DNA of 64,000 nucleotides from Sphagnum compactum (GCA_965153455.1 OZ234493.1:15614213-15678212); one strand, 5' to 3'. Shown: positions 1 to 61,965, counted from the first letter of the stretch. Made by a program: numbers and translations. Notes: generated by a model not told the origin, from the letters alone.

Positions 1-345
1 ATCGCGGATGAGGACACGGTGACGGGTTTCTTGTTAGCGGGAGTGGGGAATGTCGATCTTCGGCGCAAGACGAATTACTTGGTGGTGGATGCCAAGACGA
101 CGGTGAAAGCCATCGAGGACGCGTTCAAGGAATTCACGACACGTGAAGACATTGCCATCATCCTCATCAGTCAGTACGTTGCCAACATGATCCGTTTCAT
201 GATCGATAGCTATCAGAATCCCATTCCTTCCATTCTGGAGATCCCGTCCAAGGATCACCCTTACGATCCCAGTCAGGACTCCATTCTCTCACGAGTCAAG
301 CACATGTTCTCCAGTGATCCCACAGGCTCCACTGATCGTGTGTGA
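1..345 (+). CDS. VHA-F: V-type proton ATPase subunit F (5' truncated by window edge, no introns in the visible part)
   Basis: Frame 1 from base 1 reads IADEDTVTGFLLAGVG...FKEFTTREDIAIILISQYVANMIR...IPSILEIPSKDHPYDPSQDSILSRV, the hallmark V-ATPase F motifs. Stop TGA at 343-345. Confidence 0.97.
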   Translation: MADEDTVTGFLLAGVGNVDLRRKTNYLVVDAKTTVKAIEDAFKEFTTREDIAIILISQYVANMIRFMIDSYQNPIPSILEIPSKDHPYDPSQDSILSRVKHMFSSDPTGSTDRV

Positions 346-25710: not shown

Positions 25711-26739
25711 TAACAACATATCAAATAATGATACATAATTAATGTTTTTAAAAAAGACTAATGTCTATTCTAATGTTGGATATTAGTTTCAATGATTTAA
25801 ATTTTTAAAAATTTAATTAGAATTTAACACTATTATATTTACAAATTTTATTTATTTCCATTAATTGTATTTATATTAGTTGATAGTAACTATAACAAGT
25901 TAGATAACAATACAAATAACAATAGTTAAATAATTAGCCTAGCCTAATTATAAGCTACAATATTATTATTAATGTTGTTATTGTAATTATAACCAATTAT
26001 TACTATTAATGTAATTATAATAATTATAATACTTTAAACATATTTTAATGTCACTATTGGATTTTTAATTACTTGAATTAATTTTTGTTTTATGAATGTT
26101 AATAAAAAATCATAAATTATTAGTCATTTAAAAATACTGATTAATAATATTGATTCATTTATTGAATATATAATTACAGTTATTCGGTCAATTTTTTAAA
26201 ATTATCATATTATTTATTGAATGATAATAATATGTTTACTTATATAATTGTAAAATTAAATGGTTGATGAATAATCACTACAAATAATCAACATAATTAA
26301 CTAAGGTTAGGCTAGGTAGATAATTGGTTTAGGTTTAGGCTTAATTATGCTTAGACTAATTTGTAATTTAGTTGGAACAAGATTATAAGTATTTGAGTTG
26401 TAATTAAATTGCATTTGGATTACAACTAAATTATAATTAAAATGTATATCCCATACTGTTTTGTTTTTAATCCAAAAAATCAAACTATATAAATAGTGCA
26501 CTAGGATTGTTGGAAAAACATAATAAACAGGAAAATGTAATAACCATTTGGGAATGAACCAATTAAAAAGGTTCAACCCTAAAAGTTCAACCAAATGAAA
26601 TAGGAGTCATTTGTTAAATGCCATATGGCCTAGGTTTAAGCCTAATGTAGGTGTTTTTGTTTAAACCTAACATGTGCTTAGGTTAGGTGGCCCATGTTTA
26701 AACACCACATGGCCTAACCTATGGATGTGGATGTCCCAC

Positions 26740-26885
26740 ATATCATTAACTATTCATGGACCCCAAAATTTGTGAACATGGCATGTGTCATTTAACTATT
26801 CATGAACCCCAAATTTTATGAATGTGCCCTATGTCATTTAACTATTTATTAACCTTAAACTTTATGAATGTGCCATGTGTCAACG
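26740..26885. repeat. 45-46-bp tandem repeat, 3 copies
   Basis: tcatttaactattcatgaaccccaaattttatgaa recurs at ~26743, 26788 and 26834. Confidence 0.8.
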
Positions 26886-27109
26886 TTCGAAAATCCATTA
26901 CGCTTATGATGTTTAATGATTATGGTTTAAGAATATGTTGTTTTAAAACAAATATGAGTCATTTAGTAATTGTTCTGCATTTTGTAATAATGTATGTTTA
27001 TTTTTTAACATAATTCATTTAATGTGCATGTGAAGTGAAATTTGAAAGAAATGCATCATTAGCATATAAGGCTTCAAACACATGGGTTTACATGTGTATA
27101 CATTTGCAG

Positions 27110-30100
27110 GTGAAGTTAATATTTGCATGAGGGCATTTTGTGTGAAACTTTCATTTTGAAGATTGTGTTGATGGGTAGGAAAATAAGTAAAAACATGAAT
27201 GGATGATGGAATATTATCATTATTTAATACATATTCTGAAGAAAGTTTTTCTGTAAACCTTTTGATAAGGATTTGTATTATAAATTTTCATCTGTTTACT
27301 AGTTGTAATGAAAAAAATTATTTGTTTGTTTTGATATTTAACTATTTGTTCAACATGACTATGTTTGTTCATTTATTTAAAGTACCCATTTTCATGGATA
27401 TATATATTTTTTAAATTATATGAATGACATGTGTTTGAAATATGATGACACCCCATGTTTTCCTAATATGGTATGTTCATACGATATTTAAATATGATTG
27501 ATTTAAAAAAATTTGAAGACATAAATAATGTTTCATTTGTCACTTTTATTGGCCATGTAGCATCTTTTATGTTTTTTAGACGGTGATTACATGTGAATGA
27601 TAATATCATAACTAGTTTTTGTATGGTTTTTTGTTCTTTAGATGAAGTATTTTTTTGCATCATTTGTTTCAAGCGGTCATGAAGATTTTATGTAGCTTTC
27701 GTTATGTGGACAAAATGTTTCACTAATTATTTTTAATAGTCATAATACATTATATTCCCATGAAGATGAAAACATGAGTGTTTAATTAAAACATAAAGAT
27801 GGAAACATGAATGTTTAATTTTAATTATTTGTTTACATGTATTTTTGTTTGTCATGGAGACTCATTGGTTAAAATAAAGTGATTTATCAACTGCTTTTAA
27901 TGGATATAGATATTTTATGAAACCTCTAATATGACCAACATAACAATGGAAAAAATATATAACATTGGAAATTATTTTGTGGCATTTCACTTTAGAGTGT
28001 TTCATTGATTTTTGAATTGAAAAAAAAATAAAAAATCGATAATATGACATGAAATATGGGGATGTATTCATGGACATTATGCATGTGTATGATCACAATG
28101 TATTGCATTACTTTAAAGTTATGGATTGTGCCAAAAAACTTACATTGGAGAGGTTCCAGGATGGTAAGACATTTTTGTTTGTTATTTCATTAGATATTTT
28201 TAAAATAAAATGATTTTAAAAATGTTTTAAATTTCATAAACAAACCTTCATTTAATAATTTACAATTATGATATGTTTCAAGAATGTAAAATTGAAAGAG
28301 ACTATGTAATGAAAAGAAGTATAATGTGTATGAATTTGAACCATAAAATTATTCATGTGGGTAATGTTATGGGTCTTGGGAAAAAAAAAGACTTTAAATG
28401 AAAAAAATTCAAGCATTTATCAACAGTTTTAATGAAATCATACAAGATTTGATGATGTTTCATAGTGAATAAATTGTGACTATCATTTTCCACAACTTTA
28501 TTCCTTATGAAGATGTTTTGATAAATTAAAATCATATTGTCATTTTATGGGAAGGTGTAGATGTTATTTTTTTTATAAAATTTTTAAAATGGTGATGTTT
28601 GGTCATTGATTTTGTCAAAATAATCAAATTAAGTAGGTATGAAATATTATCCATACATATTTGTTTGAAACCTAAATTGACTTATTGACAAATCATTTAA
28701 AAATTTAGTTACATTTATATGCATTTATGAAAGATGAAATTAATAAATATTTACAAGGCAAATGGGTTAAAGACATGGGTAGATTTTTGGATGAAACATT
28801 TTTTTGATAAAAACATTTCATATCACCATGTACTAATTTGTGAATGGGTTAAATGTAATTTTTGTTTCAATTACCAAAAGATGAAGCATGGTTAGAAAAG
28901 ACTTATTTTTTTTTAACCCAAAAGTACAAGTGTTTTGTTCATAAGATCTTGATATAAATTTTTCGATTATGTGCTTCATTGAATGTAAGTTTTAAACTTG
29001 TGTCTATTTCATGAATGCATTTAATATATTATATGAGCATTTAAAAAATATATATTTATATTATTTTTTGATTTATGTCACCTTTTGTAAATGATGAGAC
29101 TTGTGAATTTGGGGCGGAATTTGTTTCATTGGTTATAATTTGTTTTTCTGTCATCGATTTGATTAAATCATATTGATAAATTCTTATTTTCTTTCACATT
29201 ACACAAAAAGAATTTGTAGGCCTAAAAAATAATTTAGATGCGCTTTATATGTGCAAGAATGAACTTTGTAAAAAAAATACTATTAACAACTTGACAAATA
29301 TATGAATTTTTCAATGCGGGAAATAAATATGATAATGAAAAATTTATAGGTTTAAAAATGAGAACACAACCATGGACTTTAAAATTAAAAAAACATGATG
29401 GTGCATTTTTTATTAAGTTCATTTAAAACCCGTTGAGGTTTCAAAGAGAACACACTTTTAATTTAACCATCATAATTTATATGTGAGAAAAAAAAACATT
29501 TCATTCATTTCACACATTCATTTTACATACAATTAAGTTAATATCATTAAAATTCAATTTAGTTTCAAATTAAAAAAAACATTTAATTTCAAGTTTATTA
29601 TTTTGTTTAAATACGTGTGAGCCATACCAACACAGTCATGTGTAATAGTCTCAATTTTTAAAAGTTGCATAAAAAATATTGGAGTGTGGTAAGGTTATTA
29701 AGGGTTTCTAACAACTTCGTGTTAGAATTTATATTTTACAGGCAAAAGAAAATGCCACAATGTTGACAAGTTCTATCATTCAACATAAACAGGTACTAAA
29801 ATTTTATTAAAGTGTACATGATTGGAATTTTTATTTTTTAATGTTTTCCATAATGCTTGGGTTTGTACTCACACTTAGTGTTATCTTGTTTGAATTTTGA
29901 ACAAACATTCAAATTTGGCTACTATTTAAATATTTGTTAAAATATGTAATGTAAAGGTTTGTAATTTCATAGGTTAGAAGTGGGAGAAACTATCTATAGT
30001 AAATAAGGTTTAGGATTCGGCTTACATATAATTTATTGCAACAATGGAAGGGGATTTGATTGAGAAGAAAAATAATGCAATGAACAAAGGACTGCAAATC

Positions 30101-37204: not shown

Positions 37205-40200
37205 TCAAAGAAACTCCTGTATATCATACCCTTGAACCTGCATGAGAGAACCACTATCAGTTGGTAGTCCAAGCTTTTACATCAACAGGTGCAGTAAATA
37301 GAAGCTATGCATAGCAGACTCACAAAAGATTGCCAAAAATATATATCAACAGAAACAGATCCAATTCCATAGCTTACCCTTAACAATGTCAACAAAACAA
37401 TAACCCCTGAATTCCATGTGGCATGTATAAGGATTGGGGTTATCAAAGTGCGGGTCTGTGCATATGCTAGCCCCAAAATCACCCCTGCAATTCGCACCAC
37501 TACAGCATGTCAGGAGTTTGATCAGATCTAGCATTTGATACAAGACACAAGCATTGGCAGCAGAGGTTCAAACTAGACTACGTCTGTCCTGCAAGTACTT
37601 CTTGCACATCTAAGCAATCCTGACAGGAGTGAAGAGACATCTTTGGAAAAACTATCAGTACCAAGAGCCACAAGTTGGGGGAATTCTCCTGGTGTTAGGT
37701 GGGCCCCAGCAAATGCACATGCACTGATCACCACTGCCACAGGTGTTGGAACCCTGTCACCCAATCCCCATTACTTGAATTGTTGCATCTTAGTGATAGC
37801 ACTAGAAGCATTGTGGGTCTGACATTAATCACACGATGGCTTGAAGGTGGACAAATGAGAGAAGTAGAACAGTACCATTTAGTGAGAGAGGTCATCAGGA
37901 AGCCACGGAACACAGATTCTTCAAGGATTGGGGCCAGGATACCAGTGACAGCTATTAATGCTGCAGTACTGTCCAACACCATCAAGCCACACAACAGAAT
38001 TAACAAATCTGATTTTCACAACAGGCCCAGTTTACTCATGTCATGCAATGTGAATAGTGGATAACACAATAAGGTCACTAGAATGGAGCGAAGACTGTTT
38101 GAGCAACCTGGCAGGTGATGCTCCAATGATAGGCAGCAGCTGGAGCAAGGCATCTGCCTCCTGCAGTGATCATAACAAGGCACAAGCTTACTGTTTGTGG
38201 CTTGAGCTCTTAAAGAACAAGCTGTTTTCCTACTACAAAACACAAACCAGAAAGGTCTAGGTCAAAGAACATTGTTAGTAACTCCCATAGCCACCGAAGA
38301 AACTTGAACAGCAGCCACCTTAAGGACCACATCATATCTACCACATCACTGTGAAATCAGAGCCCTTGAAGATGAGAGAGAATCAATCAATTGAAAACAA
38401 AAGCAGCCTTCAAGAGAGCCCTAGGAAACACACCTCTCGTGGTGGTGGTTGACCAGTTACTGTAACTGCAAGAGTACTAACTGCTACTACAGCTGCTGCT
38501 GCACCTATGACACCAATGCCTCCATAGAGTAGCCATCCTCTATGGAGATCTAATGGTGAGCTCCAGTCTGTTCTCAACAACAAAAGAAGTCGTCAACCAA
38601 CAAGGCAAGGAAGTAGCACATTTTGTATGTTTCATAACCTACTGGGAATTGTGCTCATCCCTTGACAAGTCTGTAATTGTCTAGAGCACAAGGTAGGGAT
38701 GATGGAGGCTCTGACAGTCCCACTATGAGATCTAGAGGGAATGAAAAAAGCACAAAATCTGGACACTTGCATGGGCATCCAAGAAAGTAAAAGTTCACAC
38801 ACCATATGAAAATAGTTGAGGAGGGTAAGGTTGGTGTGGGGCCAGCACCACATTCAGTGCACTGAGTCCTGCAATAGTTTGTGCACTGAAAAACAATCAC
38901 TAATCCATCAGCACATCATGCCCCTCTCCCTTTCACACAGGAGATGGTTTAGTCGACAGATACACATATTCTTGTGCCTATCACTCATGAAACTGATGCA
39001 TTAAACAAAATCAGGACATGTGGAAGTGAAAAACCCATGCTTTCCGATTCATGAAACATGGTTGAGAAAAAAATGCAAACAAAAGGAGGGTGGAATAGAC
39101 TTACAGCTGATGAACAAAGATGAAGAGAGCTTGCTCATCCAGGTCCATAACCTGTCGTCTGCTTATCCCAAGGTATGCTGCAATGGCTGATACTGCTATT
39201 CCTGTTGTCAGAAAGCTGTCCTTGCATCATCCAAACTCCCATCAAACAGTTATGTACAAAAACCTGACACCACATCTTACTGCCAATGAATTCCCTCATT
39301 TCTTTTGTTCACCTGAGCAACCATCAGTCTCAAGATGAGACCACTTTAGCCAATTCCATTCTGAATGCTATGCTACATGCAGGTAGATCTACAAAGGGCA
39401 AATTGAGGACAAAGATGTGGAATAAAAGCACAGCACACTTTGGACACAGATGAGGAATACCTGAACAACCAAATCGCCATTCCGACTGCCGTCACTTTGC
39501 CATCCCATGGCACATTCCATCTCTCCAAAATTGGCCAAGAGGTTCCTGGCTCCTGCAAAAAGAAATTGCATGAGCCCCCAGCCACCAATTTCCCCTTACG
39601 ATTTTCATATGCCCTAATTGATTGCATGCATCACTCTTTTTCTCACTCTTTCATTGTGAGGCTCCTCTGTGCTGCAAGAGGGTTGCCATTGGGCACTGCC
39701 ATTATTGCAAATTAGGAGACCGTGACTGTATAGCAAAACTTGACTCCAGCTCCTCCACAAAAGAAGGAAGATTTCAACCACCGTGGCAGTGAAGAATTGG
39801 CGACTGCAAAGAAGAAGTTTTTCTACTGCAACTTTTGAGGTAAGTAAGCAAGAGGGAACAAGAGTTCACCGGTGTGGGAGGACCGCCGCCGTCGTTCACG
39901 ACTTGGATAAGCTCGTCATCGTCTTCGGCGATGGCTTTATTGCGTGCAAAGAAGCAGCGACTGCTGCTCTTCTTTCTCAGTAATGAGCAGGGTAACAAAG
40001 CTTGTTGTTGCTCAGGGATAGAACGAGGACCACTACCAAGCCGCAGAACTCGGAATAGCGGCCGAGCTTCAGCTATGGAGGCTGCTGCTGCTGTTATTAT
40101 GTTGCAGCGTCGTCGAGATCCCAGTGTTGTTGTACCAATCTGGTGCAGCAGCAGCGGCGGTGTTGTTGCAGCCAGCTTGCTGCCGGCTGCTGCTGTAAGA

Positions 40201-40421
40201 GATGCCATAGTCATCCCTCCTCGCCCGACATCAAACCTCCAAAAAGTCTCAGTACAAAAGAAGTTGTTATTGTTGTTGCCGATACTCACAGCAATCCCCG
40301 GCCTCGTGACAAAGGGCTTCAGCAAAACTGCTGAGGAGGATGAAGATGGCGATTCATGTACGACAGAAGAAACTGTACAAGCGACGCCGCAGAGCCCTTG
40401 CATTGCTGACGCCACAACCAT
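37205..40421 (-). CDS. CPBP/Abi-family (type II CAAX) intramembrane protease-like protein with a probable plastid transit peptide
   Basis: Ala/Ser-rich first exon, then WPILERWNVPWDG, LAPILEESVFRGFLMTSLTKW (EExxFRG), FAGAHLTPGEFPQL, LGLAYAQTRTLITPILIHATWNSGVI (HxxxN). Last exon VQGYDIQEFL*, stop 37205-37207. Confidence 0.92.
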
Positions 40422-41026
40422 CCTCTCCTCCTCCTCTTTCTCTCCTCTTCCTCCTCCCACAAGAAACTCCAAAAAACAGAGCCAAAAAACACTACCTCAT
40501 CCTAAACTCCAGAACTGAAATCCTAAGATGCATGCATGCCAAGAGGAACGCGATTGCAACAACAATCTGGCGATGGAGTCAAGAGCAAAAAAGTTATTAC
40601 CGCGAACAAGAATCAAAAGCATCAGTAGAAGAGGATAATCCAACAGACAGCAACCGCAATCCGAAACCCCCTGTCTTCGCTTGTGTACCTCTGTTTGTTT
40701 GTGGTTGTGCACGGGTACGAGTGACGTTATTTGCGGGCGAACAGGAGAAAAAGCAATCTGAAGAAGGAGAAGAAGAAGAGGCAAGAACAGAACAGGGCCC
40801 ACCGTTTGCGCATCTGCCGCCAGAGGAGAGCCGAGCATCACCCGAATCTCTCTATTGCTTGGCAAGCGATTCTCCTACTCCTTGAACTCCAAACGTTTGC
40901 ATGCAACGAGCGGTGAGAGATTAATCTCTCGAAAGAAGCAATTCGGATCTGCAAAAAAGAGAGCAAGACCGTGTGAGTAACTGTGGACGGATTTGGTTGC
41001 CTTACAGCCTGGTAGTACCTTTGATT

Positions 41027-41376: not shown

Positions 41377-44300
41377 TCACTTGATGGCAATAACGACAGT
41401 CTGTTTTTCTTTCCACAACTTACTTGGACCTCGGTTTTTTCTGATGATCATTTTGTCCATCGAATCGAGCAACTTTCCTGTAAATTTGTGCGAAGGAGGC
41501 TTTTGTTTATGCCTTCGAAAAGGCAGAAAAGGTGCGCGCAAAGCTTCCGCAATTGCATGACCATTGACATCATCTTTCACAGCTAATTTATTTTGCCATT
41601 CTGTCTGTGGCAAACACAATAACAATGCTCATCGATGCACTCAAATACACAAACACGTTTTCCCCGCACTATGCTAATTAATTTCGTGCTCTGGACTCAA
41701 TCCTGCAAATGAAGATCATAAAGATCTGTATTCTCATGCTGATGAAGATGATGATGATAATGCGTGTTGATCAACTCCGAGTTCCTCTCTCCGTTTGCTC
41801 TGAATTGCACAGATGAGAATGCCAAGCTTGTGAGAGATGGACATATTGCGAAGAGATATTCAAGCTTATCTACGTTAACTCCGCCCTCGATACACGGGGC
41901 AAAAGGCACTGACAGCAATGCCTTCTGCCCTGGACCTCGGGCTCTTCAGAGCTCCGCCCTCGATTCACAGGGCGAAAGGCACTGACACCAGCAGTGCCTT
42001 CTGCCCTGGACCTCGGGCTCCTTGGACGTCCGTCCTTGATTCACAGGGCGAAAGGCACTGACACCAGCAGTGCCTTCCCCTTCATAACATCCAAGGACAT
42101 TGATTGCTGACATTACCTTATGTGAATCTGTTTGCTCTCTTATGTCAAGGAAGTTCAAGTCTTTCAGCTTTCTTGAGTGAAAGTGCTGCAGAATAATATT
42201 GCACTTGTGAGAAATTTCAGAAAAAAGAGTTTGTCCAAACAGAAAGATGCATGCATGATGCGAAAGCTAGAAAATGTCATCCCAATCGGTTTTGTTGCCA
42301 GCGGTGTTAGCTGCAAGATCATGAGGATCGCCTGAGTCCACAATAACACAGAGCTGCCTGTAGTCACTCACTTTGGGAGGGACCATCTGCAAGAATAAAC
42401 AAATGGCACATGTTTTCCCATGTCAATTTCTTTCTTGTGGATTATACAGAGTGTGTGATCTGTTTCTGGAGAGGAACAACTGATGCGTTCATCAGGAACT
42501 CTGGATCATCTCACACAAGAGCTGAAGATGAAGAAGAGATTTATCCAAAGAGATGTTGCTACTTCTTGTTTGATTATACGAAGATGGTGCAAACAAGTCT
42601 AGTAATTGCAAGAGATTTAGTGCAGTATATATCTCTTACAGGTGCCTCCTCCTTTTCACGAATGAGAAGTTGGAAGTTGATGACTTTGTTGAAGAATGGG
42701 TGTTCTTTGATCTCAGCTGTACCAGACTTGCGGCATCCGAGGCGTGTCTCAGGGTTAGGATCCAGAAGTTGCTTCACAATGTCAATTGCATTGGCACTCA
42801 TGTAAGGTGGAAACCTGACATTGCCTTGAGTGATGGTACGAAACACAACCTACACCCAAAACATACAAACACCATCATGAATCCCTCTTGCATGCATTTT
42901 CAGGCTAAAGGACTTTTCGACCATACACAAGATGTAGTTGTTGCTTTCTTCTGATCTAGAGCCCTGATCTAGATCCTCAATTGTGTCATTTCTTGAACAA
43001 AGTTCTTCAAAGTTTTTCTTTACTAGGTAAGTACCTGAGGTGGATCATCACCCTTGTTGAAAGGGCTTGTATTGGTAATCATCTCAAAGATGAGGCAACC
43101 GAGCGCCCAGTAATCAACACCTTTGCCATGTCCTTGACGCTTGATGATTTCAGGAGCCATGTAATCAGGCGTGCCACACATGGAGAAGGTGCGGCGGTTA
43201 TGGATGCGCTTGGCAAACCCCATGTCAATCAGCTTTGGATATCCACTTTCACTGATCATTGTGTTCTCAGGCTTGAGATCACGATACACTATTCCTTTGC
43301 TATGCATGTATTCTAGTCTGCAACAACCCACAGCACCCACTAAGCTTTTCTTTGTCAACAGCTGCTGCTGCGTAGCTTTACATTAGAAAGAACTGTTGCA
43401 TGTCTTGCAGGGAGTATGTACAACGAAGGTGGTGTATAGGAATGGACAATCACAGAGCAGTAAAGCTTAAACAGATCTCAGGTGCTTTGTAGCTAGAGAG
43501 AATCAACAGATCCAAAAGGGGGGACATACGCAAGAAGAACACTGCCTGCGTAGAATGCTGCCTCCCATTCTTGCAAGCGCCCCATTTTCTCCATGAACAA
43601 AAACAACTCCCCGCCTGTGGTCAGCTCCACCAGCAAATATACCTGAAACAATGAACAGCCCCCAAACAATCTTTTTCTTAATCAAGAAAGAGAGGAGACA
43701 TCCTTGCATTTTCCCTGCTCTCAAGATTTGAGTAATTGTGATTAGTCATCAGGATTGCAGAACAATCCAGGCGTTGGGGTTTCTCTGTCAGGTTGTTGTT
43801 GCTCTTTCATGAACTGTTCCATGGCTGTCATGTGTGATGTTCATGATATCCAGAGGCTGGTTAGGGTAAGCAACTGCTATCTTACATTTCTTGCATCCTT
43901 GAAAGTGCGGATGAGCTTGGTGATGAAGGGGTGATCCAGGTCTGACATGTGAATCTTCTCATTTCTCAAATGCTCCTCTTCTTGCATTTTTACTACCTGT
44001 TCAACAAAAGCAACATCCATCAGTCCAATCTCTCATTCAACAGATCTAGACATTGCCAGAAATCAGCCATGCTATGTACATATTCTGGGAAAGTGCACAA
44101 GGAAGCTAACATCCAATGGGAGGACAAACAAGCACAGAAGAAAAATGTGTGAAGAGGGAGGACCTTGGCTTTGCTGACACATTTCAGAGCATAGTGCTCT
44201 TTTGTGTGATGACTGTACACGAGTTTCACTTTCCCAAACAAACCTGCAGCAAGAGATCCAGCAGTAAAATATCACATTATAAGTGAGTGTATGGGGGTGC

Positions 44301-47300
44301 CTGCCAGCTAGGGGTGAAAGAAGATGGAGTTTTTTTGCATATCAACTGAAAATTACATCCAATTTTGGTGGCATGACCCCCCATAAGAATGAACAACAAA
44401 TTGAAAGCAGGGTTTCTAGGGTGATGCAGGAGAAACAATAACCAGCTCCAAGAACTCCAATTTCCTCAAGTTCCTCAAAAGTGATATTCTTCACAATCCC
44501 ACGCTTCTCATCCTCACGCCGCCGTGTCTCATTCAACTCCTTCAGAAGTCCAAGATTTGCCTCCAGCACTTCCCTATCCAGATAGTACAATTCAGCACCT
44601 GGCAGCAGGCCGAGCAGTCCAATTTCAATTGTCAGTCATTGTCAATCTTATGAAGACTACCTTTAGTTCTTGAAAGACTCCCAAGATTCTTGTGTTTCTT
44701 CAAACCACAAAACCCTGAACTTGCTGTAATAAGAATTCTGTACAATATTGTGAAACTGGACCATGAAGTTTGCAATCTGTTCTAACAAGAAACACATGAT
44801 GCGGAGATCCAACAGATTTCTTGGTTGCACCGAAAATGGAGGAAGGGAGAGAGGCCCACGTTGTCCTGCAACCATGGTGGATAGACATGGCTCATTGCTC
44901 ATGAGAGCATCTTCTCCAAAGTAAGATCCTTTGACAAGCACAATCTGGTCGGCCTTTTTGTCATGTGGAGTCATGATGACTGTCCCTCGATGCACAACAT
45001 AGAGACGATCGGTGAGTTCTCCAGCCTTATAGATTGTCTCCCCAGCTTTCATTCTGTGGACACCCATTGAATGTGACAGCATGCTGATCTCTGGGCTCGT
45101 GAGATACTCTAAACACACAAGCTTTCTGCAAAGTTACACACAATCCAAATAGATATTCTTCAGGGGATTTATTAGCCTGGAGACTGTACACCATTTTTCC
45201 TCACAATCTCTCAACCTCTTGCGGGTGTGCCAGGATCATCCAGAGCCCATGTGCAAACCACAAGCCACAACATTATTATATGACTGATCAAATTGAGAGT
45301 GAAATACATTGGGGCAGAGCTAATAGCACCACCTGAGGACCTTGAGGTTCACTACACGTGAGAGGAGCTCTTGAATGGGCCCCAAGATCAATGTCACTTC
45401 TGCCAATGACACTGACAACACTACAACTCCTGCTTTGGATTCAGCCACTGTTGTTGCTTGACATGGAGTCCCATGGCTATTCTCGTCCTTCACAGTGCCA
45501 AGCAAACATTCATCACCAAACACACCATATGTGGTCACAGTGAAAGGACCAGTGCTGCAAACAGTAAGTTAAACATTACTGTTAGACAGCAACTGATGCC
45601 TTAAAGCTGGGCAAAAAGATTCTGTTTGGCTGAAAAGCTAGCTTGGGATGAAAGAGGAAAGACAATGAAGAAGAAGGACCCAACCCTTCCCTGCCTTCCT
45701 TGGCAAGCAAACTGCTTTGTTTGATCCATTACTAGTCTTCCTCAGAATTCCTCAGTGTTGGAGATGCAGTTGGAAAACCTTGACATGAGAATCTAAAGCT
45801 ACAGAGAACTCACATTGAAGTTTGGCTGATGTTTGACCTTGTCTTATCTGTTGGCTGTTGCTGCACAGCCTTGCCAGATGCACTAGCTCTTGTTTGAGAT
45901 TCTGATGTTCGAGTCAGTGTCGACTTGGTGGATGCTGCTGAAGGAGCTGGCACTGAGGCAGGAGCAGCCACTGCTGACTTAACCTCACGTGTAGGTTTCA
46001 TATCCTCCTGTGTACTGCTGCCACTGCCTAGCTTATTTGATTTCAAATGTGATTGTTGTCTGCCACCACCGCTGCCTTTTTCGCTTCCAGATGTGATGAT
46101 GCTACTACCTGAGCTGCCCTTGAGAATTGAATTGTGTTTGTTTCCTGCACTACTACTTGAAGAAGTAGTAGAACCTCCATCCCTCTCCCTACTACTTGTC
46201 TCACTCTTGTCCAGCTTCTCGTCACTTGAAGGTAGCTTGTACAAGCTCACAGTACCTCTTTGGACCACAAAGATACGGGCAGCTGATCCATTCATGTCAC
46301 CAATCCTGGTGATTTCTTTCCCTGTGAATTAAGGACAGATGGGCACTTTAGAAGAAGGGCCATGTTTGTGTGTGCAAATCAAGAGTCTGGAATGAGAGTG
46401 GAAAATGGAGCTGGAAAATTGGAAGTCAGTGTTGAGTCATGACATACCTTTTGCATAGACAGTCTGGGAGAAAGTTTCTGCCAGCTGAGAGAGTTGAGTA
46501 GGACTGAGCTCTAGAAATGCATGTATGCGTTGTAGAGCACAAGTGATGAGCTGATTTTGCAATCCTTTTCGAATCGCTGTGAGCATATCCTTGGTGAAGA
46601 GCTCTCGATTGACAGTAATGATGGTAGTCTGCAATGAAATTACATAGAAAAAAAGACACCCACCACTCTTCAGAAGAAAATAATGATATCAATAGTTTTG
46701 ATGGTTGGTTCTAAAGATCCTCAGGAACTACATACATACCTACCAACCTACCTACAAGCCACCACCTGGACAAAGCAATGTCCCAACCTACCTCATCTGA
46801 TGCTGCATTGTAATTGTAAGGGATTGTTGACTCTTCATTCAAGAGCAATGCTTCACTGAGAACTTCCAAGCGGCTCAACATGGTCAGTGTCTCGCCACCA
46901 CCTTCAGCCCCTCCTCTCCATACCACAATTTGGTTGCCCACTGTTTTGCCCCAACTCACCCGTACCTGCCCCTCTTGCACTATACAAACCTAACATGCCA
47001 AATCCAGCCACAGCATAAATGAGAACTATATAAACCCCTGCCACAACAGCATCCATTCTGTCACCTAATCTCTTCTGTGGACTGTATGTTGTTCTTGGTC
47101 TAAAGAGTGGCTTGGGAAAAAGTTGCAAAAGAGATGATCAAGAAGAGATTGATTCAGAAAGAGATAAATCTGGAAATTCAGAAGCAGCAAGAAATGGGTC
47201 CACTTATATGAGGACATGCCTCCCAACAGGGTTCATTGAGAGAGTTTCTGATCAAAGCTAGAGCATTATATTATTCCAGAGGTTTGTGCATTGAAATATA

Positions 47301-50039
47301 ATCAGACTTGCACAAGAGTCTCTCACATGCTCTTTTCCATCATGATCATCTTTAGTTTCTTTGACGTATATACCCTGTCAAGGCTTGACCCAGCTGTCAA
47401 AATTGGATCCCCACGTCGGTAGCTCATGATGCTACAATTGTTGCCCAACATCACAATCTCCTTGGTTGATAACTTCTTCAAAGCAGGTGCTTCCCTCAAC
47501 ACCTGTGTGGCAACAAAACATGATGATTATGATGATGATGAGGGCTTCATGAGGATGAGAGGCTAATAATTCCCAAAAGCTTCAACCTCAATTTTACAGT
47601 CAGTACTCGATCCCTTGTCTCTGTTTTTCTCTCTCTCATCTCTTGGGCATATCTCTCGCACATGCTTGCTTGCATCAAGGAGAGAAGGAGTTGAAGAAAA
47701 AAAGAAAGGTAATCTTGAAGCAGCGGGTATCATCATCATGCCAGCTACAATTGAGACCTGAGCAACTATGAATGTGTGTAGTGTTTTTCAGCTGTACAGA
47801 AAAGTAACCTGGGCATTTGAAGATTCAGAGAGATGTCGACCTAAGATAGATTTGAAGGTGATGCGATTGACAGTCCACAAGAGGGCATGTGAAATGGCCT
47901 TCACTGTGGCATTACGTGTGGTGTCATACATCATTGCTAAATCCCCAAAGCTCTCTCCAGCTCCTCTGGTTCTTAACAACAAAAAGGGCTCATTTCCCTA
48001 CAAATGTTTGACATACACAACTGATCAAGCCCTTTCAAAGAAGCAGCCCCCAAAGCTTGCTTGCATGAGAGAGACAGACTCCAGAAGTGCAAGAACAAAA
48101 CCTTTGAGATCATTGGAAATTGAAAACTGCAAGACCAATTACTGTTTTGCAAGAAAGCAGTCGAATCAGCAGTGGAAATGGAGCTGCAACCTTACCTTCT
48201 TCACCAAAATTTCAAATTCACCCACATCCTGCAAGGCAAAAAACATGGTCAGAATTTCAACAATGATTGATGCCAGAGAAAGATGTCAAACAGATTTGAA
48301 CATGTATAACTAAGATCAGCAACTAGACCGTGTGTAACATGGGCAATTGCCAGATTCTTCTTACAATGATGTAGAAGTAGTCAGCAACATCACCCTGCTT
48401 GATTACTTCAGTACCGGGGGAGACTCGAACATCCTGGAAGGCGTCAATGATCTCCTCTCTCAACTCCTTCTCTAGATCTCCAAATATGAAGTGGTTGCTG
48501 CAGAATTTAAGATTCAAGAGTGCTCAATTGACGAGAGAGTTTTGGAAATGTCAATTTGATGAGCAAACACAATTTAGCTTTTGATGGATTGGTTTCTTCT
48601 TACACTAACCGAGAAGTTTAGAGAGACTAATTATATCAAAAGACAAATCTCATGGATTATCATCATCATCACCATCATTATCATCATCAGTGGCAGCGGC
48701 AGAAACAGAGGTATGCAATTGTATGTACCTGAGTATTGTCCGTAGCCGCTCCTTTGTAGTTTCAGACTTTGGCACTACTTGGATTGGCGGCAGACTTTCA
48801 CTCATTGATAGATCTCTCCCACTGTTCACCCCCTGTTTCTTGTTAATCCTTAGTACTATTGCTTAATTTTGTGGTTCAAGCTAAAATCAATTGTCCAAAT
48901 CAGGTAGCTGGTGTCCAATCAGCAAAAACCCTACCATATCCTCTGACGCCGATTTTTAATCACACCACCCACAGCTTCACTCCATGTATCTGACCAATCG
49001 TGTGATGCTGAGTTCAGCCCACTGTCAGGACCACACATTCCCCACTACAGTTTTCAGCAACTGATGATCTTCCTCATACATACTTATCCAAGAAAGAAAG
49101 AGAAACCCTACAAGGATCAAACTGCAATTAGACAATGATGAAGACCTTAACAATTGTGATGGTGGTGATGATGATGACCTGCGGATATCACTCATGGATG
49201 TGGTTGCCTGGTCAGAGATACTAGACCCATAAGCATTGGGATTCACATGATCCAGCTGCTCAAGGTTGATCACTCCTTGCGAATTCTCCTTCACATTCTT
49301 TGTCACCTGCAGGGAGGGACCCAGAGTACTTACTCTTGTGAGCTCTTCTTTCTGGCTTAACTCTGTTTTTTTTTCTGTAGAAATATAATATACTCTTGCA
49401 AGAGGTTTGCGGTGCTTGTTTATTAAGGAAGGAACCTTTTCAACATTTGAGAGATCTGTTTTCTGGATGCATTCAGCATATCTGTTCAGTGACATCTTGA
49501 CTATGGAGATTTGCTGGGAATTGAAGTTTGCCAAAAGCTCCTCCAGCTCCTTGATCATGACTGTAATCCCATCTGGCGTCATGTCCCTGTCAAACTTCTG
49601 CAATTGCAACCACCAGTTCAGTTACAAATTTTTGTATCAGGATGTTTTTCACATGCATATAAAACAAACAGATGTTCAAACAAGACTGAAAGAGAAGAGA
49701 ATGGAAAGGAGATTTTTTGGAATCTGGAACTTGTTGTTGTCAAACATGTTTGTGAAGAAAAAGGGCTTTTCAAGAGCCCATGTGGGTCATCAAATCAAGA
49801 ACATGTGTATAATGAGCAGGAATATTCCAACAGACCATCATCACGGTTTTCAGCACTTGAATCTTGGCAGCAGCAATGGTGGTCCATGCTTGTTCCATGT
49901 ACTTGATAAGATCTGCTTTGGCTGCAATAATAGTAAGACACAATTGAGATCAGCATGATCAGCTTGCATTGAAGTCTCTCATTTGCTTTGAGCTTTTCAC
50001 TGCAAAAGTTCTCGGAACTGAATTCACCAGCTGGCTCAT
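41377..50039 (-). CDS. cGMP-dependent protein kinase (PKG)-like AGC kinase with four cyclic-nucleotide-binding domains; ~20+ exons, both ends approximate
   Basis: Linker KNRRQRIWG...VPKSETTKERLRTILSNHFIF. CNB-A: VIKQGDVADYFYII...GESFGDLAMMYDTTRNATV. CNB-B, CNB-C and CNB-D (e.g. KAGETIYKAGELTDRLYVVHRGTV...GSYFGEDAL). Kinase: LGAGLFGKV, YALKCVSK, LDHPFITKL, GGELF, YRDLKPEN, DMGFAK, CGTPDYMAPE, DYWALG, RLG...IKEHPFF. Confidence 0.9.
41880..42077. repeat. GC-rich 73-76-bp tandem repeat (~2.6 copies) built from stacked hairpins, near the 3' end of the kinase gene
   Basis: Units start at 41880, 41953 and 42029. Stems cgccct/agggcg, aaggcactg/cagtgcctt and gccc/gggc. Confidence 0.9.
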
Positions 50040-50592
50040 CTTCTTCTACTAATCATCCAACAAGGTGCAGCTTGGGTTTTCTTGTATGTAGTTTGAAGCT
50101 CATTGCAAATCAGTAAGCATGAATAGGTTGTGCTTGAAGTGCATTGGTATCAATATCCGAAAGCTCACAGCTGGCTTGGTTTTTTTTGGTTTGTGGAGAA
50201 GTTCCAGATGCTGCTACTGATCAGAGAAAGAACTTGAGAGAAAAAAATGGCATTGATCACTGCAGATGCCTTGAAATTGAAGATCAGATCAGAGAAACTT
50301 GGAGGGGGGGCGGGGCATAAGAGATGGATGGAGTGTACCTTTGTCATGGGTGGTGGTGGAATTGGCAGGAGCAACAACACATGGAAGTGGTTGACCCATT
50401 GATACCTCGCTCATTATTGCTCTGTCTCAAGCTCCACTAGGTATTATTCTATCTCAAACTTTTTCTTCTTCTTCCTCCTGCACTGACAGACAGACGGACA
50501 GACAGACAGACAGACAATAATGCCATTCATTAGTGCAGCTGCATCTTTGCAGAGAACACAATTGCTTGCTGCAATTGCATAAAGAATTGCAA

Positions 50593-50908
50593 TGTGTGTG
50601 TGTGTGTGTGTGTGTGTGTGACAAGATCCTGCATGTACAACACTCTTGATGAAGAATCAACATGCCATCTTGACATGTACAACACTCTTGGTGAAGAATC
50701 AACATGCCATGTTGACATCATTGAAAAGAAAAAATGGGAAGTCAGTCTGAGGAAAATGCTTGAAGAATGGAATGCCAGGAGAAACTCACCAATGCTTTTT
50801 GCTTGAAGAATGGAATGCCAGGAGAAACCCACCAATGCTTTTGCTTGAAGAATGGAGTGCTGGGAGGAAATGACTAATGCTTCTGCATGAAGAATGGAAT
50901 GCTGGGAG
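50593..50908. repeat. (TG)n, then a 42-bp duplication, then a 42-43-bp array of 4 copies
   Basis: TG run 50593-50620. catgtacaacactcttg at 50632 and 50674. gaagaatgg at 50762, 50805, 50847 and 50889. Confidence 0.9.
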
Positions 50909-51281
50909 ATTGGAACTGACATGAATCATGAAATTGTTGTTGGGCATTCATGCAAGGGAGTGGAGATCTTAGGATGCAGAAAGGAGAAAGCTTGTGTGCA
51001 CAAGGAAATCGCCACATTATTTCGAAAAATGGCGAAAGAAATCCCTAAGAATCACAAAATTTTCATGGGTTTTTTTCATTTTCTGAAATTTTTTTTTTAC
51101 AAAGTTGCCAAATTTCGCCCCCAGAAACAAAAAAAGAAAGAAAACACATACATGTTGCAACATGTCGCCACATTATGAGGACAAAAAATTCTGAAGTCGC
51201 CATATTTAAACAATAGGTTCCAACATGTCGCCAAAATATGGATAAATCTTAAATTTGTTGAGCAGTTATAGTCTTTCTTTG

Positions 51282-51285
<4 letters not shown>

Positions 51286-51334
<49 letters not shown>
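51286..51334. repeat. Compound (CT)n(CA)n microsatellite
   Basis: Visible directly. Confidence 0.9.
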
Positions 51335-52441
51335 TCTTTCTTCTTTCCTTAGGGTTTGGGACAATTCCAAAGCTCAAGCTTGAAGAACCTGTCTGTCTGG
51401 TGCAATCTCATGCAGCAACCAACCCAGAGAAGATTTTGTACAACAAATGTTTCCATGGATCATTGCTTGAGAGAGAAACAAAGTGGTCGTATGGATGGTT
51501 GAAGTATCCAAGGCTTTTCAGGTATGAGAACCCCCTGCAACAACAGAAACAAAGAAATGGGGGTGCAAAGGTGGAAGAACCCTGCAACAACATCCTTTTG
51601 AAAATCTGCAACATCAGCGACATCTGTAGCTTGATCAATTGGATTTTGGAGGAATCTGGAAGGACAAACACGGGCAGTATCATTCCAAAAATCTGCAACA
51701 TGAGTCAGCATCTGTGCGTGATCACATTGAATTGCTTGATTGAGAAACAAAGTGACATTGGGTGCGGTTTGAAGCATTGGCTTTCAGGTATGAGATCAGC
51801 TACAACAACAGCAAGAAAGAAAACTGGGTCCTAATTGGGTCCCTGCAGTATATATCATCCCCAAAATCTGCAACATCAGCAGCAATTGTGCTTTATCACA
51901 GGAATATATTGCTGTGCAGAGATCTTGCGAGAGGAGGAGTTTCATCGATCATGGAGTTATGTAATCACAGAGCGTGTGCATAAAGCCGAGGTTCAGCGAT
52001 TGCATCACATGATGGCATCACATATCCACCCAATTGATGTAAGTTGATATGTACCTTGATTTGTGAAAGGTGTTGGTGACATGCAGAATGATGGAGAGGG
52101 AGATGCGAGCTTTTTCATCACACCAAATACCAAGCTACAATATTGCAGAATTTGTGATACTTGGGCTCATTCAAAATTGGGGTTCCATCCTTAGAAATAA
52201 GGATTCCACGACTTTTTGTGTAACCTTACGTCCTTGAACCTTACTTACTTACTTACTTACTTACAATTTAGCGTCATTAAGTGGGCCAAACAGCGCCCGG
52301 GCCAGAACCCATTTGACGTTAAGTCTGATGAAGCAATTCAGATCTAACCTTCTGACATTGCACTAAGAATCTAGCAAGGATGCCTTGCTGCTGACAGCTC
52401 ATCAATTCAGCCAAAGGTGTGATCGCAGTTAGTGGCAATGA

Positions 52442-52680
52442 ACCTCTAACCATCTCTCGACTAACCTAGTCTCCTTCGTCCCTTAGGACCAACAAGGGGG
52501 TGGTACAGGAATATTCACCTGTTGTCCATCGATTACGCCTTTCAGCCTGATCTTAGGCACCGACTCACCCTTTGTGGATGAACCTTGCGAAGGAACCCTT
52601 AGGTTTTCGGGGCAGTGGATTTTCACCAATGTTTGCGTTACTCAAGTCGATATTCTCGCTTTTGCTTCATCCACACTTGC
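52442..52680 (-). pseudogene. rrn23: Nuclear insertion of a plastid 23S rRNA gene fragment (NUPT)
   Basis: Plus strand ggtacaggaatattcacctgttgtccatcga.tacgccttt...gaacccttaggttttcggggca.tggatt.tcaccaatgtttgcgttactcaag is the reverse complement of plastid 23S rRNA. It is only ~240 bp and carries C>T/G>A changes relative to the recalled consensus. Confidence 0.85.
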
Positions 52681-59544: not shown

Positions 59545-61965
59545 CTATTGATTGAGTCTGTAACTCCGACCAGAAAAAGCAGTCCTAGCACCAGCAGACA
59601 CAGGTGTTTGAGTTGAGGACGCTTGAGGCCTAGGCCATCGGGCAACCAGCTGATGTCTGAAATGGAATCCATCAAGGAAAAGCTTACTGCCACTGCAACA
59701 AGAAAAAGCCCTCAAACAGGCAATGCACACTCAACACCCACATCCATCCCCCTGACATGTTTCACTAGTTTATGACCAGAAGGAAGGAACCCTAAAAATA
59801 ATTCTGCATATTCTGACCTGTATAATAGAAAGGAAAATGTGTCTGTTTTGCAAACATCAACAGCAAAAAAACTTTGTAAGCATCCATACAAAGGATAATT
59901 AAAGAAGAGCAACAAACATAAGATTTTCACCTGCCTTACAACAGTAAGAGGATACACCCAATGAGGAGTTTTTAGATAGTTGTGGCCAGTGGCTTGGGGA
60001 TGCAAGACGGTAAGGAAGTAGTAGATGTGTCCTACTACGATTCCCATTAAATCCACCAGGAATGGGTGACCAAACATCGTGTTGACAGCAAGTAGGGCCC
60101 AAGGCAACCAAAAGCCCTGGCATTTATGTCCTCAAGTTAGTAAACAATCCCTCTTGGTTACAACATCTTGCATTTCTCACAGAAGAAGCTGGTTCCTTTT
60201 TTCTATGATGCAGATGAAGTACTTTGGAAACCTAGCACAAGCAATGAATTCAACTACTTGGTGCTGAAAAGTTACAGAAGTCAGAAAGTGCAACAAAAAG
60301 GACCCAAACCTGCAATGTAACAAGTCCCATGAGGCTGACACGGGCATTTGCAAACTCACGGCTCCAGACATAAAGGAGCATAAACACAAGTGCATGGCCC
60401 ACATAGAACCTGATTGTGGGTAGTGCCAGTGCCATAGCCTGCCATGTATCATGAAAAACCATGTACATTTAAAAATTATGCCATCGATTCCATACATGGT
60501 AACATGACAAAATTGAACTCTAGCACTCACACATGGATAATGTTTCCATTGGTACTGGTAATCAGAAGACAAAAATGCATGATCTAGGTCATACCAAAAG
60601 TGTGACCATCGAAACTATGAACATCCATACAAAATCTGCTGTGCGCTTGTCAAATGGGCCCTTCTCCAACTGTACTCCATACTTTGCTCTGATTCCATTT
60701 CCCAACAACAAAAAGCTATGTTAGAAGAGTCACAGTCTGCATGACATGAATGGTAAAATAGAGATCAGATCTTTTCAACAGGCTAATGGAAATGAGCAAA
60801 ATCATAAGCAAGAATGTGATGCATTTGTCTAGATATACCCCAACATGTCATTTTCCTTTCATCTGGTCAAACAACTTGATTCCTGCTTCCTTCATTGTGG
60901 ACTACTTACACACAGCCCAGGATTCTTGACCCTTTTGTACCTTCTTTCAATCTTAGTTAAGTGCCCGAATGGGCTCTGATGTTTACTTACATCATCAAAA
61001 TCCGCACACCAAATTGCATAGAGAAGGGTCCTAAAAAGATAAAGTTGGTCAACAACCGCCATATCTGCAAACAAGGGCAGAAGATTCACATGGTTAAAAA
61101 AAGATGCATGACAACATCTCAAGAGGTCTGAAATGATATTGAACATCGGACAATGAGGAAATCTTCTTTGTCCAACACCTCAAATCCATCAAGTTTGGTT
61201 GCAACTTCAACAAAACAATAGTTATAACCTCTTCACCAATTACAAAAAATCCCAAAACTGACAACACAATAATAACAATCTGAAGAAACTCCAAAGATGG
61301 AATTCCATCAACCAAATAGAGAAGCCATTTTGTTAAGTCTTGTCCCAGAGAGAAAGACACCTGAAGACCTGAATCCAGAACTTGACAATTTGGGATGGAA
61401 ACATCATACTTGGAATTTGCTCGCTACCAAAGCAAAGTCAAGAAGGAGCCATTCAGCTTTGATCACACCGAGTTGATACCCAAGAGTTGTGAGAACACAT
61501 AGTGTTCCAAAACCCTTGCTCACTGGAGGCAAGGAGTTGTAAAAGCTGCAAACAAACAACAACACAACACAACAGAAAAACCCGCCAGCAGAAATCTCCT
61601 CAGTAACACATTCAATAATTCTCATCCGTTGTTGAAGCAGTAGCAGAGCCACCATTACCATATTACAGCAGGAACCTCACCACAAAATGACAGCTCCTCC
61701 CAAATAGAATTCCCAAATAGCAAAGTGCAGAAGAACAAAGTGCGAGATACTTGCAAAGAGAAAACAAAGCAATTTTCATGTGCAACCAAAGGAGATCCAC
61801 GTTCTATTTCGATCCAGAAGAACCCATCAATGTCCCGGTGATAGGAAATAAAAACCTCCGCATCAAATCTGGTCTCTAACCTAACTGGAACATGTGGAGA
61901 AAAATACAGAGGGAGACAGAGAGAGACAGAGAGATGTGCTGCACTTACTCGGCTGGCGAAGACAT
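59545..61965 (-). CDS. DER1: Derlin-1 (ERAD rhomboid pseudoprotease)
   Basis: Exons read MSSPA / FYNSLPPVSK...KFQ / IWRLLTNFIFLGPFS / KYGVQLEKGPFDKRTADFVWM / LVFMLLYVWSREF / FWLPWALL...GHIYYFLTVLHP...LKTPHW / AFSGRSYRLNQ* (SHP box). ATG at 61965, stop at 59545. Confidence 0.96.

Follow-up and report, generated by a model that had tools for sequence, protein, structure and literature searches.

Gene structure and coding extent

The 64,000-nucleotide stretch of Sphagnum compactum DNA described here (GCA_965153455.1 OZ234493.1:15614213-15678212; hereafter "the window", with positions counted from its first letter) carries on its minus strand an intact gene for a protein kinase resembling the cGMP-dependent protein kinases (PKG). 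The predicted protein places four cyclic nucleotide-binding (CNB) domains ahead of an AGC-type kinase domain in a single chain and belongs to a family of land-plant proteins that has been catalogued but not characterized. Stop-to-stop reading frames on the minus strand gave coding pieces that could be chained from ~50.4 kb down to 42.3 kb, and a splice model guided by tblastn matches of orthologues joins them into 22 exons separated by 21 GT-AG introns, with a coding sequence of 3564 nt that encodes 1187 amino acids (aa).

50414 to 42267, minus strand: whole coding region, 1187 codons plus stop (ATG 50414-50412, stop 42267-42269)
50414-50339, 49921-49836, 49597-49436, 49306-49179, 49021-48935, 48821-48729, minus strand: exons 1 to 6, each given from high to low coordinate
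48497-48365, 48228-48196, 47997-47809, 47502-47374, 46989-46792, 46628-46448, minus strand: exons 7 to 12
46321-45814, 45554-45333, 45125-44860, 44598-44443, 44243-44164, 43996-43886, minus strand: exons 13 to 18
43642-43530, 43317-43035, 42849-42640, 42386-42267, minus strand: exons 19 to 22
41377..42266, minus strand: non-coding 3' flank; orthologue matches end at 42270 (tblastn)

The ATG at 50414 also starts the models of Sphagnum jensenii and of S. troendelagicum/tenellum, and the open reading frame (ORF) that contains it begins just four codons upstream, directly after a stop codon. At the other end, Pfam found no match in the 3' flank at 41377..42266. The interval proposed by the initial annotation, 41377-50039, thus covers most of the gene while leaving out exon 1 (50414-50339) and adding about 890 nt of the non-coding 3' flank. 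The donor of exon 13 was set at a GTGAGT site because the longer exon agrees with the coding text of the paralogue discussed below.

Orthologous gene models are present in three other Sphagnum species, and the public Sphagnum models of the window orthologue are each incomplete. Both look mis-spliced. One of them (P0002) is without the N-terminus, starts at the linker and has intron text in place of part of CNB-B, and the other (P0004) skips the small exon at 48228-48196 as well as the whole of CNB-B and CNB-C. A corrected full-length model is now given for a peat-moss PKG-type gene with an intact catalytic core.

Repeats lie on both sides of the coding region. A 76-bp unit is tandemly repeated 2.7 times at 41879-42077, just 3' of the stop codon, and the sequence just 5' of the start codon (50485-50909; 51285-51312) holds 42-bp arrays together with (GACA)8, (TG)14 and (TC)14 microsatellites.

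Domain architecture

From its N-terminus the protein consists of a family-specific region, a basic RRQRI motif, the domains CNB-A, CNB-B, CNB-C and CNB-D, the AGC kinase and a tail that ends in WDDIF.

48994..50414, minus strand: N-terminal region, residues 1-160, specific to the land-plant family
48937..48951, minus strand: RRQRI, residues 175-179, candidate pseudosubstrate 33 residues before CNB-A
47809..48745, minus strand: CNB-A, residues 206-329 (Pfam on 2 exon pieces; CNB profile 96 bits)
47902-47949, minus strand: CNB-A cassette, with Asp285 (47941-47943) at the position of Glu in the family and in Plasmodium PKG; Arg kept
46548..47502, minus strand: CNB-B, residues 330-465, decayed (CNB profile 52 bits; hhalign against CNB-D 95.9%)
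46798-46860, minus strand: CNB-B cassette remnant, Gly replaced by Ser in the window copy (46855-46857)
45125..46547, minus strand: CNB-C, residues 466-742, decayed and split (N-terminal half 24 bits by the CNB profile)
45554-46241, minus strand: insert in CNB-C, 143 residues, rich in Ser, Thr, Gly and Lys
45446-45520, minus strand: CNB-C cassette remnant, Gln at the expected Arg
44486..45124, minus strand: CNB-D, residues 743-868 (Pfam cNMP_binding E 1.3e-10; CNB profile 107 bits)
44870-44920, minus strand: CNB-D cassette, Cys822 (TGT, 44885-44887) where Arg is expected
42643..44485, minus strand: AGC kinase domain, residues 869-1147 (Pfam Pkinase on 5 of 95 ORF pieces, best E 1.2e-34)
43218-43226, minus strand: DMG in place of DFG
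43149-43193, minus strand: activation loop RTFSMCGTPDYMAPE
42270..42642, minus strand: C-terminal tail, residues 1148-1187, ending in WDDIF

The kinase domain contains the glycine loop GAGLFG, the Lys of ALK, the catalytic YRDLKPEN, the activation loop RTFSMCGTPDYMAPE and the APE motif, so the intact AGC kinase with a PKA/PKG-type activation loop that had been proposed for this locus is indeed present, with the DFG motif reading DMG. This variant occurs in 19 of 120 PKG-like kinase domains, comprising all 12 aligned named members of the land-plant family and 7 of the 108 others. The W, D, D and F of the C-terminal ending are invariant across the family, and a consensus of 93 PKG-like proteins ends in WDxxF. 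The CNB domains (207-867) and the kinase (869-1147) lie in one open spliced frame, unlike the arrangement in the PKA holoenzyme.

Recognition of the four CNB domains depended on the sensitivity of the method. Pfam cNMP_binding matched 3 of the 95 minus-strand ORF pieces, all of them pieces of CNB-A or CNB-D, with two scores that reach the cut-off (28.9 and 41.5 bits) and a third of 17.7 bits; CNB-B and CNB-C are invisible to Pfam in the separate exon pieces, and whole-protein Pfam scans of orthologues return 2 to 3 CNB stretches. A general-purpose CNB profile, derived from 257 such domains in PKG-like proteins, matched the window protein at residues 207-329 (96 bits), 328-465 (52 bits), 467-543 (24 bits) and 738-867 (107 bits). 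Profile-profile comparison with hhalign gave 96% for CNB-A against CNB-D, 95.9% over 110 columns for CNB-B against CNB-D, and 96.2% over 116 columns for CNB-C against CNB-D once the CNB-C insert had been cut out. Taken together, these results indicate four CNB homologues, two of which have decayed. The four tandem CNB folds of the initial annotation therefore stand as four homologous domains, with "fold" to be understood as homology-based.

In PKA and PKG, the Gly-Glu pair and the Arg of the CNB phosphate-binding cassette make the key contacts to the cyclic phosphate. Across the land-plant family the cassettes of CNB-A and CNB-D are canonical and those of CNB-B and CNB-C are decayed, a live-dead-dead-live pattern that goes beyond the initial annotation. 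The CNB-B cassette Arg is missing in every family member aligned, and the corresponding position of CNB-C holds Gln or another residue, with a nearby Arg in Riccia only. The insert that splits CNB-C is barely conserved, ranging from 72 to 156 aa across the family and being 31% identical between the window protein and its paralogue.

The window copy departs from this pattern at its two canonical sites. Its Asp and Cys align onto the cassette Glu of CNB-A and the cassette Arg of CNB-D in Plasmodium PKG (5dyk_A). The CNB-D Arg is found in 8 of 10 aligned family rows and in Plasmodium PKG, whereas the window protein has Cys, and other family members keep both Glu and Arg in CNB-A and CNB-D. The residue that follows the cassette Arg in the family is Asn in CNB-A and Ser, Val or Leu in CNB-D. 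As a rule, Thr at this position signals cGMP and Ala signals cAMP; neither is found there in any aligned row. What the sequence shows is gene structure, domain homology, residue states and phylogenetic position; autoinhibition, the choice between cAMP and cGMP as ligand and the cell type of action are matters that we infer.

The linker between the N-terminal region and CNB-A had been read as KNRRQRIWG. The text KNRRQRIW is present in the ORF at 48934-49044, but the final WG is read-through of the splice donor, and the spliced linker, as in the S. jensenii model, is KNRRQRICG. The motif RR[EQ][RK]I falls in one column of the family alignment, where 7 of the 8 rows with sequence at that place keep it whole (Calypogeia has PRERI), and it lies at -33 relative to CNB-A in the window protein and at -34 in Marchantia. 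Among 14 algal and protist four-CNB relatives examined, 9 carry a canonical pseudosubstrate (basic-basic-x-Ala/Gly-hydrophobic) 29 to 44 residues before CNB-A, namely RRLAV, RRLAI (twice), RRKGV, KRQAV, KRFAV, KRIAV, RRAAV and KKMGV; one further four-CNB relative has a substrate-like RRASL at -59. This positional homology with the algal RRxA[IV] motifs supports RRQRI as a putative pseudosubstrate. The pseudosubstrate-like character noted earlier is supported by the position of the motif alone and not by its P0 residue, which is Arg instead of Ala.

No Pfam family was found in the N-terminal region, and an Atlas search with the part of the Marchantia protein that matches it gave a best score of 0.79 and no known relative. 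A decayed PP2C domain was considered as its identity and rejected: hhalign against residues 1-400 of an algal PP2C-CNB-kinase fusion (P0430, described below) returned a probability of 0.05%, no better than a reversed control.

The absence of a PP2C domain, which had been claimed at the outset, holds at every level at which Pfam was applied. PP2C matched none of the 95 ORF pieces of the gene, none of the 102 minus-strand ORFs of at least 40 aa upstream of it as far as the window end, and none of the 115 ORFs that reach 75 aa or more on either strand in the rest of the window; no upstream exon therefore adds such a domain. Neither was PP2C detected in any of 13 scanned proteins, which comprised 10 named land-plant orthologues, one further family member and two outgroups.

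Orthologues and green-algal relatives

A search with the largest kinase piece (43026-43382, minus strand) returned near-identical matches in S. magellanicum (99%) and S. jensenii (97%), whereas S. troendelagicum and S. tenellum gave a second Sphagnum form that is 87% identical. Orthologues with identities of 83-90% followed in two species of Riccia, Marchantia polymorpha (MPTK2_1g01440), Calypogeia, Physcomitrium, Ceratodon, Selaginella and Diphasiastrum, beyond which identity falls to at most 57%, in animals and protists. These matches mark the window as nuclear DNA of Sphagnum. Among the matches listed, orthologues come from 13 named species, each of them a liverwort, moss or lycophyte, and no orthologue from a seed plant, or from a fern, hornwort, cycad or Ginkgo, was seen. 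No angiosperm sequence appeared among the matches listed in the kinase search, the profile search or the search with the algal relative P0239.

When 1.84 billion representatives were scored with a profile made from nine members of the family, six family representatives were recovered before scores dropped from 607 to 543 bits into a broad PKG-like field. When CNB domains were counted with the local profile over the representative matches of that search (145 representatives), at least four were found in 38 of the 115 PKG-like proteins that had CNB matches. Named proteins with four or more CNB domains include those of Gonium, Ostreococcus, Cymbomonas, Chloropicon, Pyramimonas, Rhodelphis, Colponema and Diacronema. 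From this spread it follows that the four-CNB layout is old and widespread and not an apicomplexan specialty and, on the sequences compared, four CNB domains are the ancestral and common state in green algae.

Trees place the family within this algal diversity. A kinase-only tree of 120 rows recovered the family as one clade (support 100); its stem is long, its sister group is not resolved, and no named outgroup joins it. In a full-length tree (45 rows, 859 columns, careful search) the family clade (100/100) falls inside an 18-row group (100/98) that also includes Pyramimonas, both Chloropicon proteins and five other proteins, and that is separate from the group of Gonium, Ostreococcus and Cymbomonas-a. 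The alternative of joining the family to the Chlamydomonas/Gonium/Ostreococcus type was rejected, at a cost of 55 log-likelihood units and a P value in the approximately unbiased test (p-AU) of 3e-5, for a group that was named after the tree had been seen. Cassette states agree with the Pyramimonas/Chloropicon placement: Pyramimonas, Chloropicon a and P0239 have lost the CNB-B Arg as land plants have, and proteins of the Gonium/Ostreococcus/Chlamydomonas type keep Gly-Glu and Arg in all four CNB domains. The phylogeny proposed at the outset for this PKG-class kinase thus sets the family as a clade within an algal PKG group, in a tree of which the angiosperm fusion proteins are not part.

UniRef names several family members cGMP-dependent protein kinase, and the Marchantia gene Mp1g01440 is listed as "cGMP-dependent protein kinase like", one of 14 Marchantia CNB proteins, in SI Table S1 of Yamamoto et al. 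2024 (PMC11032487), a study whose own subject is just CAPE and the PKA subunits. Mp1g01440 is not named in the main text of any paper in our literature search, and searches on PKG in Marchantia, Physcomitrium and Selaginella, and on antheridia, spermatozoids and PP2C, found no study of the family. "Poorly described", as the kinase had been called, is accordingly right with regard to function and less so with regard to naming; the family is catalogued yet uncharacterized.

Sphagnum paralogues and nucleotide control

The two Sphagnum forms are sisters (99/96) in the full-length tree, with a stem of 0.196 for the window lineage versus 0.133 for the paralogue. At 339 positions that are invariant in six non-Sphagnum members, the window lineage has 22 changes and the paralogue 6 (binomial p 0.0037). 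This excess and the longer stem mark the window copy as the one that evolves faster of the two copies left by a duplication in the Sphagnum lineage, and none of its private changes falls in a catalytic motif. Both cassette changes, Glu-to-Asp in CNB-A and Arg-to-Cys in CNB-D, are present in S. magellanicum, and Arg-to-Cys also in the S. jensenii model; because these species share them, they are fixed changes and not sequencing errors.

Faster evolution than the paralogue and the loss of two cassette residues are what one might see in a decaying or unexpressed copy, but we consider decay very improbable. All 1187 codons are open, and each splice site of the 22 exons is intact. Over the 279 residues of the kinase domain, identity is 100% with S. 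magellanicum and 86% with the paralogue, and the Sphagnum species that were compared carry the substitutions as fixed changes. On its sequence, the locus is a real, intact gene for a four-CNB, PP2C-less, PKG-like kinase.

We read the protein as a PKG-class autoinhibited AGC kinase that would have come by vertical descent from the green-algal four-CNB PKG subfamily, and put the probability of this reading at about 0.6. At rest, the pseudosubstrate and the CNB array would hold the kinase shut, and binding of cyclic nucleotide at CNB-A and CNB-D would release it, as in PKG and PKA; the decayed CNB-B and CNB-C probably serve as structural spacers. For the window copy, weakened or A-site-only nucleotide control may be expected, with the catalytic core intact, because the CNB-D Arg is now Cys and the CNB-A Glu is now Asp.

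Several observations weigh against this reading. The Cys of CNB-D may disable what is the main activating site of relatives, so that nucleotide control could be lost altogether. The P0 residue of the candidate pseudosubstrate is Arg or Lys in the land-plant family rather than Ala or Gly, and we know of no precedent for Arg or Lys at this position. DFG reads DMG, although 7 PKG-like kinases outside the family share this variant. The family stem is long, at 1.44 changes per column, which leaves the exact sister of the family uncertain. Finally, three junctions of the gene model are uncertain, namely the donors of exons 13 and 15 and intron 3 (49435-49307), which is 129 nt long and in frame and could be retained.

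The two cassette substitutions put the cyclic-nucleotide dependence of the window copy in doubt, and one could go further and propose a nucleotide-blind paralogue, in which such control was lost after the Sphagnum duplication, the CNB domains act as scaffold only, and regulation has passed to phosphorylation of the Ser-rich insert, to partners or to pairing with the paralogue. This fits the restriction of both substitutions to the window lineage, where they are old and fixed, the 22 versus 6 changes at otherwise invariant positions, and the family-wide death of CNB-B and CNB-C. Complete loss of control nevertheless seems unlikely to us: CNB-A keeps its Arg and has a conservative change in Asp, CNB-D is still 71% identical to that of the paralogue and scores 107 bits with the CNB profile, and the candidate pseudosubstrate has been kept. 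An autoinhibited kinase with reduced nucleotide control is the reading that we prefer, and the paralogue pair, with its natural Arg-to-Cys and Glu-to-Asp substitutions, is ready-made material for asking which sites confer nucleotide control.

Possible biological roles

The distribution of the family invites a comparison with motile sperm, and the kinase had been proposed to be retained in plants with flagellated sperm. All 13 named orthologue species do have flagellated sperm and no seed plant is among the matches listed, but the proposal is incomplete in that these matches also lack ferns, hornworts, cycads and Ginkgo. Ostreococcus and Chloropicon are not known to have flagella. Since both have four-CNB relatives of the family, the link to flagella is not strict.

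A role as an effector of cyclic nucleotides in motile sperm, where it would act on the flagellum beside the CAPE/PKA module, is compatible with the mechanism preferred above and can be put forward tentatively. In Marchantia, cAMP made by CAPE is reported to control sperm motility, as are the PKA regulatory subunits (PMC11032487), and three cyclic-nucleotide-dependent kinases are reported from the Chlamydomonas flagellar proteome (PMC2171396). The literature search found no expression or mutant report for any family member that would tie it to sperm, and the supplement of PMC13190419 gives Mp1g01440 a moderate expression level, with a logCPM of 4.0, in whole far-red-grown plants, which is not a sperm-specific signal. 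For the same material, the comparison of wild type with a swi3a/b line has a logFC of 0.92 in that source, which is too indirect to be used here, and the text of a preprint on sperm candidate genes (10.1101/2021.07.25.453666) names no kinase.

Detection of Mp1g01440 in whole 14-day plants, according to that supplement, would suit a vegetative signaling role, for example in osmotic or salt stress, carbon metabolism or light responses, as with other PKGs of the green lineage. A PKG-deficient mutant of Chromochloris is described as salt-sensitive and altered in carbon metabolism (PMC13706994), and a rice PP2C-PKG is described as acting in gibberellin and salt responses (PMC11638329, summarizing Shen et al. 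2019). Neither the Chromochloris nor the rice protein has been shown to be an orthologue of the family, and loss from seed plants would need another explanation, so that we regard this role, too, as possible rather than probable.

The existence of true cyclic-nucleotide-dependent kinases in plants has been argued for decades (PMC12237933).

An algal PP2C fusion and the seed-plant "plant PKG"

The initial annotation set this kinase apart from the PP2C-CNB-kinase fusions of angiosperms. The contrast holds for the domain content of the window protein, which has no PP2C, but it is blurred by an algal fusion protein that falls in the same subgroup and shows the same CNB decay. This protein (P0430) is an MMETSP transcript of 1213 aa that was found by a search with the algal relative P0239, and Pfam assigns it PP2C at 86-328 (115.7 bits), CNB domains and a kinase at 903-1160. 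Without its PP2C part, it joins the same 18-row group as the land-plant family in a quick tree (99 SH-aLRT), within which a 14-row subgroup (92) unites P0430 with the family and with the Chloropicon-b group in an unresolved trichotomy. Its cassettes are canonical in CNB-A and CNB-D and decayed in B and C, as in the land-plant family; its CNB-A starts with VVPKS and the protein ends in WDDVF.

The sole clade-L PP2C of Marchantia, Mp4g20380 (MpPP2C19), is described as a PP2C domain alone, and Arabidopsis PP2C19 as a PP2C with CNB and AGC-like kinase domains, the latter predicted to be inactive (PMC13017905). Elsewhere PP2C19 is described with two cNMP domains (PMC11775391), and kinome catalogues list one "AGC_PKA-PKG" kinase each in sorghum and wild sugarcane (PMC8294386). 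The grouping of P0430, the separate Marchantia PP2C and the domain make-up of PP2C19 raise the possibility that the seed-plant fusion is the fused counterpart of the bryophyte gene. We offer it as a conjecture, and hold it somewhat doubtful, that the bryophyte and lycophyte four-CNB kinase and the seed-plant PP2C-CNB-kinase (OsPKG, AtPP2C19) are two forms of one ancient gene.

If this conjecture were true, the algal ancestor would already have had the P0430 layout of PP2C, CNB-A, dead B, dead C, CNB-D and kinase, bryophytes would carry its parts separately as MpPP2C19 and Mp1g01440, and seed plants would keep the fused form with a decayed kinase. The gene would then not have been lost from seed plants, and the "two cNMP domains" of PP2C19 would be the only two of four that are still detectable by profile. 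Bryophytes would in turn offer a catalytically intact, unfused version for the study of plant cyclic nucleotides. Where the "plant PKG" of seed plants came from becomes directly testable now that an algal fusion has been placed in the subgroup of the land-plant family.

Surrounding sequence

Pfam matches on ORF pieces identify four other genes in the window:

1-342, plus strand: V-ATPase subunit F (E 7.5e-27)
16737-18399, minus strand: DEAD-box helicase (DEAD, Helicase_C)
37285-40496, minus strand: Rce1-like CAAX protease, the downstream same-strand neighbor of the kinase gene
59715-61676, minus strand: Derlin (DER1), the upstream same-strand neighbor of the kinase gene

A fragment of bacterial-type large-subunit rRNA at 52308-52631 on the minus strand matches Rfam RF02541 with 75.2 bits, covering positions 1316-1688 of the 2925 in the model. 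The start codon of the kinase lies 1.9 kb downstream of it. The first ~190 nt of the fragment are well conserved and the remainder has diverged; it is probably a piece of organellar rRNA that has moved into nuclear DNA. An AT-rich stretch at 24000-30000 has a G+C fraction of 0.23-0.26, compared with about 0.41-0.47 around the kinase gene, and contains a 308-bp unit repeated twice in tandem at 25118-25747 along with other short arrays. None of its ORFs of at least 75 aa has a Pfam match.

Comparison with known systems

With the Marchantia orthologue as query, the best solved relative is Plasmodium PKG (5dyk_A, E 1.1e-105), followed by human PKG I beta (6.2e-86) and PKA catalytic subunits (~1e-72), in keeping with the four CNB domains of apicomplexan PKG to which the initial annotation had referred. 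Apicomplexan PKG (Plasmodium falciparum, P. vivax; PDB 5dyk, 5ezr, 4rz7) is likewise a single chain in which four CNB domains are followed by an AGC kinase. CNB-A of Plasmodium PKG aligns to CNB-A of the family, and CNB-D and the kinase align end to end. The third CNB of Plasmodium PKG is decayed, as in the family. In comparison with the apicomplexan enzyme, the land-plant family has also lost CNB-B, carries an insert of 72-156 aa in CNB-C, reads DMG where DFG is usual, and combines a long N-terminus with a basic pseudosubstrate-like motif. The window copy has no Arg at the CNB-D position where Plasmodium PKG retains one.

The green-algal four-CNB PKGs (Pyramimonas parkeae, Chloropicon primus, Chlamydomonas CHLRE_03g199050, Gonium, Ostreococcus) arrange their domains in the same order, carry a pseudosubstrate ahead of CNB-A, as the family putatively does, and end in WDxxF. 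The land-plant family differs from them in its long stem, in its decayed CNB-C with an insert, and in the Arg instead of Ala at the P0 position of the pseudosubstrate.

The plant PP2C-CNB-kinase fusions (rice PKG; Arabidopsis PP2C19, AT2G20050) resemble the family in that CNB domains precede an AGC-type kinase in a land plant, and the algal fusion P0430 shares with it the intact A and D and decayed B and C domains, a CNB-A that opens with VVPKS and a WDD[IV]F terminus. PP2C19 differs from the window protein in having a PP2C domain and in its kinase-like domain, which is predicted to be inactive (PMC13017905), whereas the catalytic motifs are intact here.

Animal PKG I/II and PKA share with the window protein the YRDLKPEN motif, the CGTP.Y.APE loop, the logic of the cassettes and a pseudosubstrate, a candidate one in the window protein, about 30 residues before the first CNB. 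Animal PKG has two CNB domains (7lv3) as against the four found here, and in PKA the CNB domains lie on a separate subunit; Marchantia is listed with separate homologues of the PKA regulatory (R) and catalytic (C) subunits in addition to Mp1g01440 (PMC11032487).

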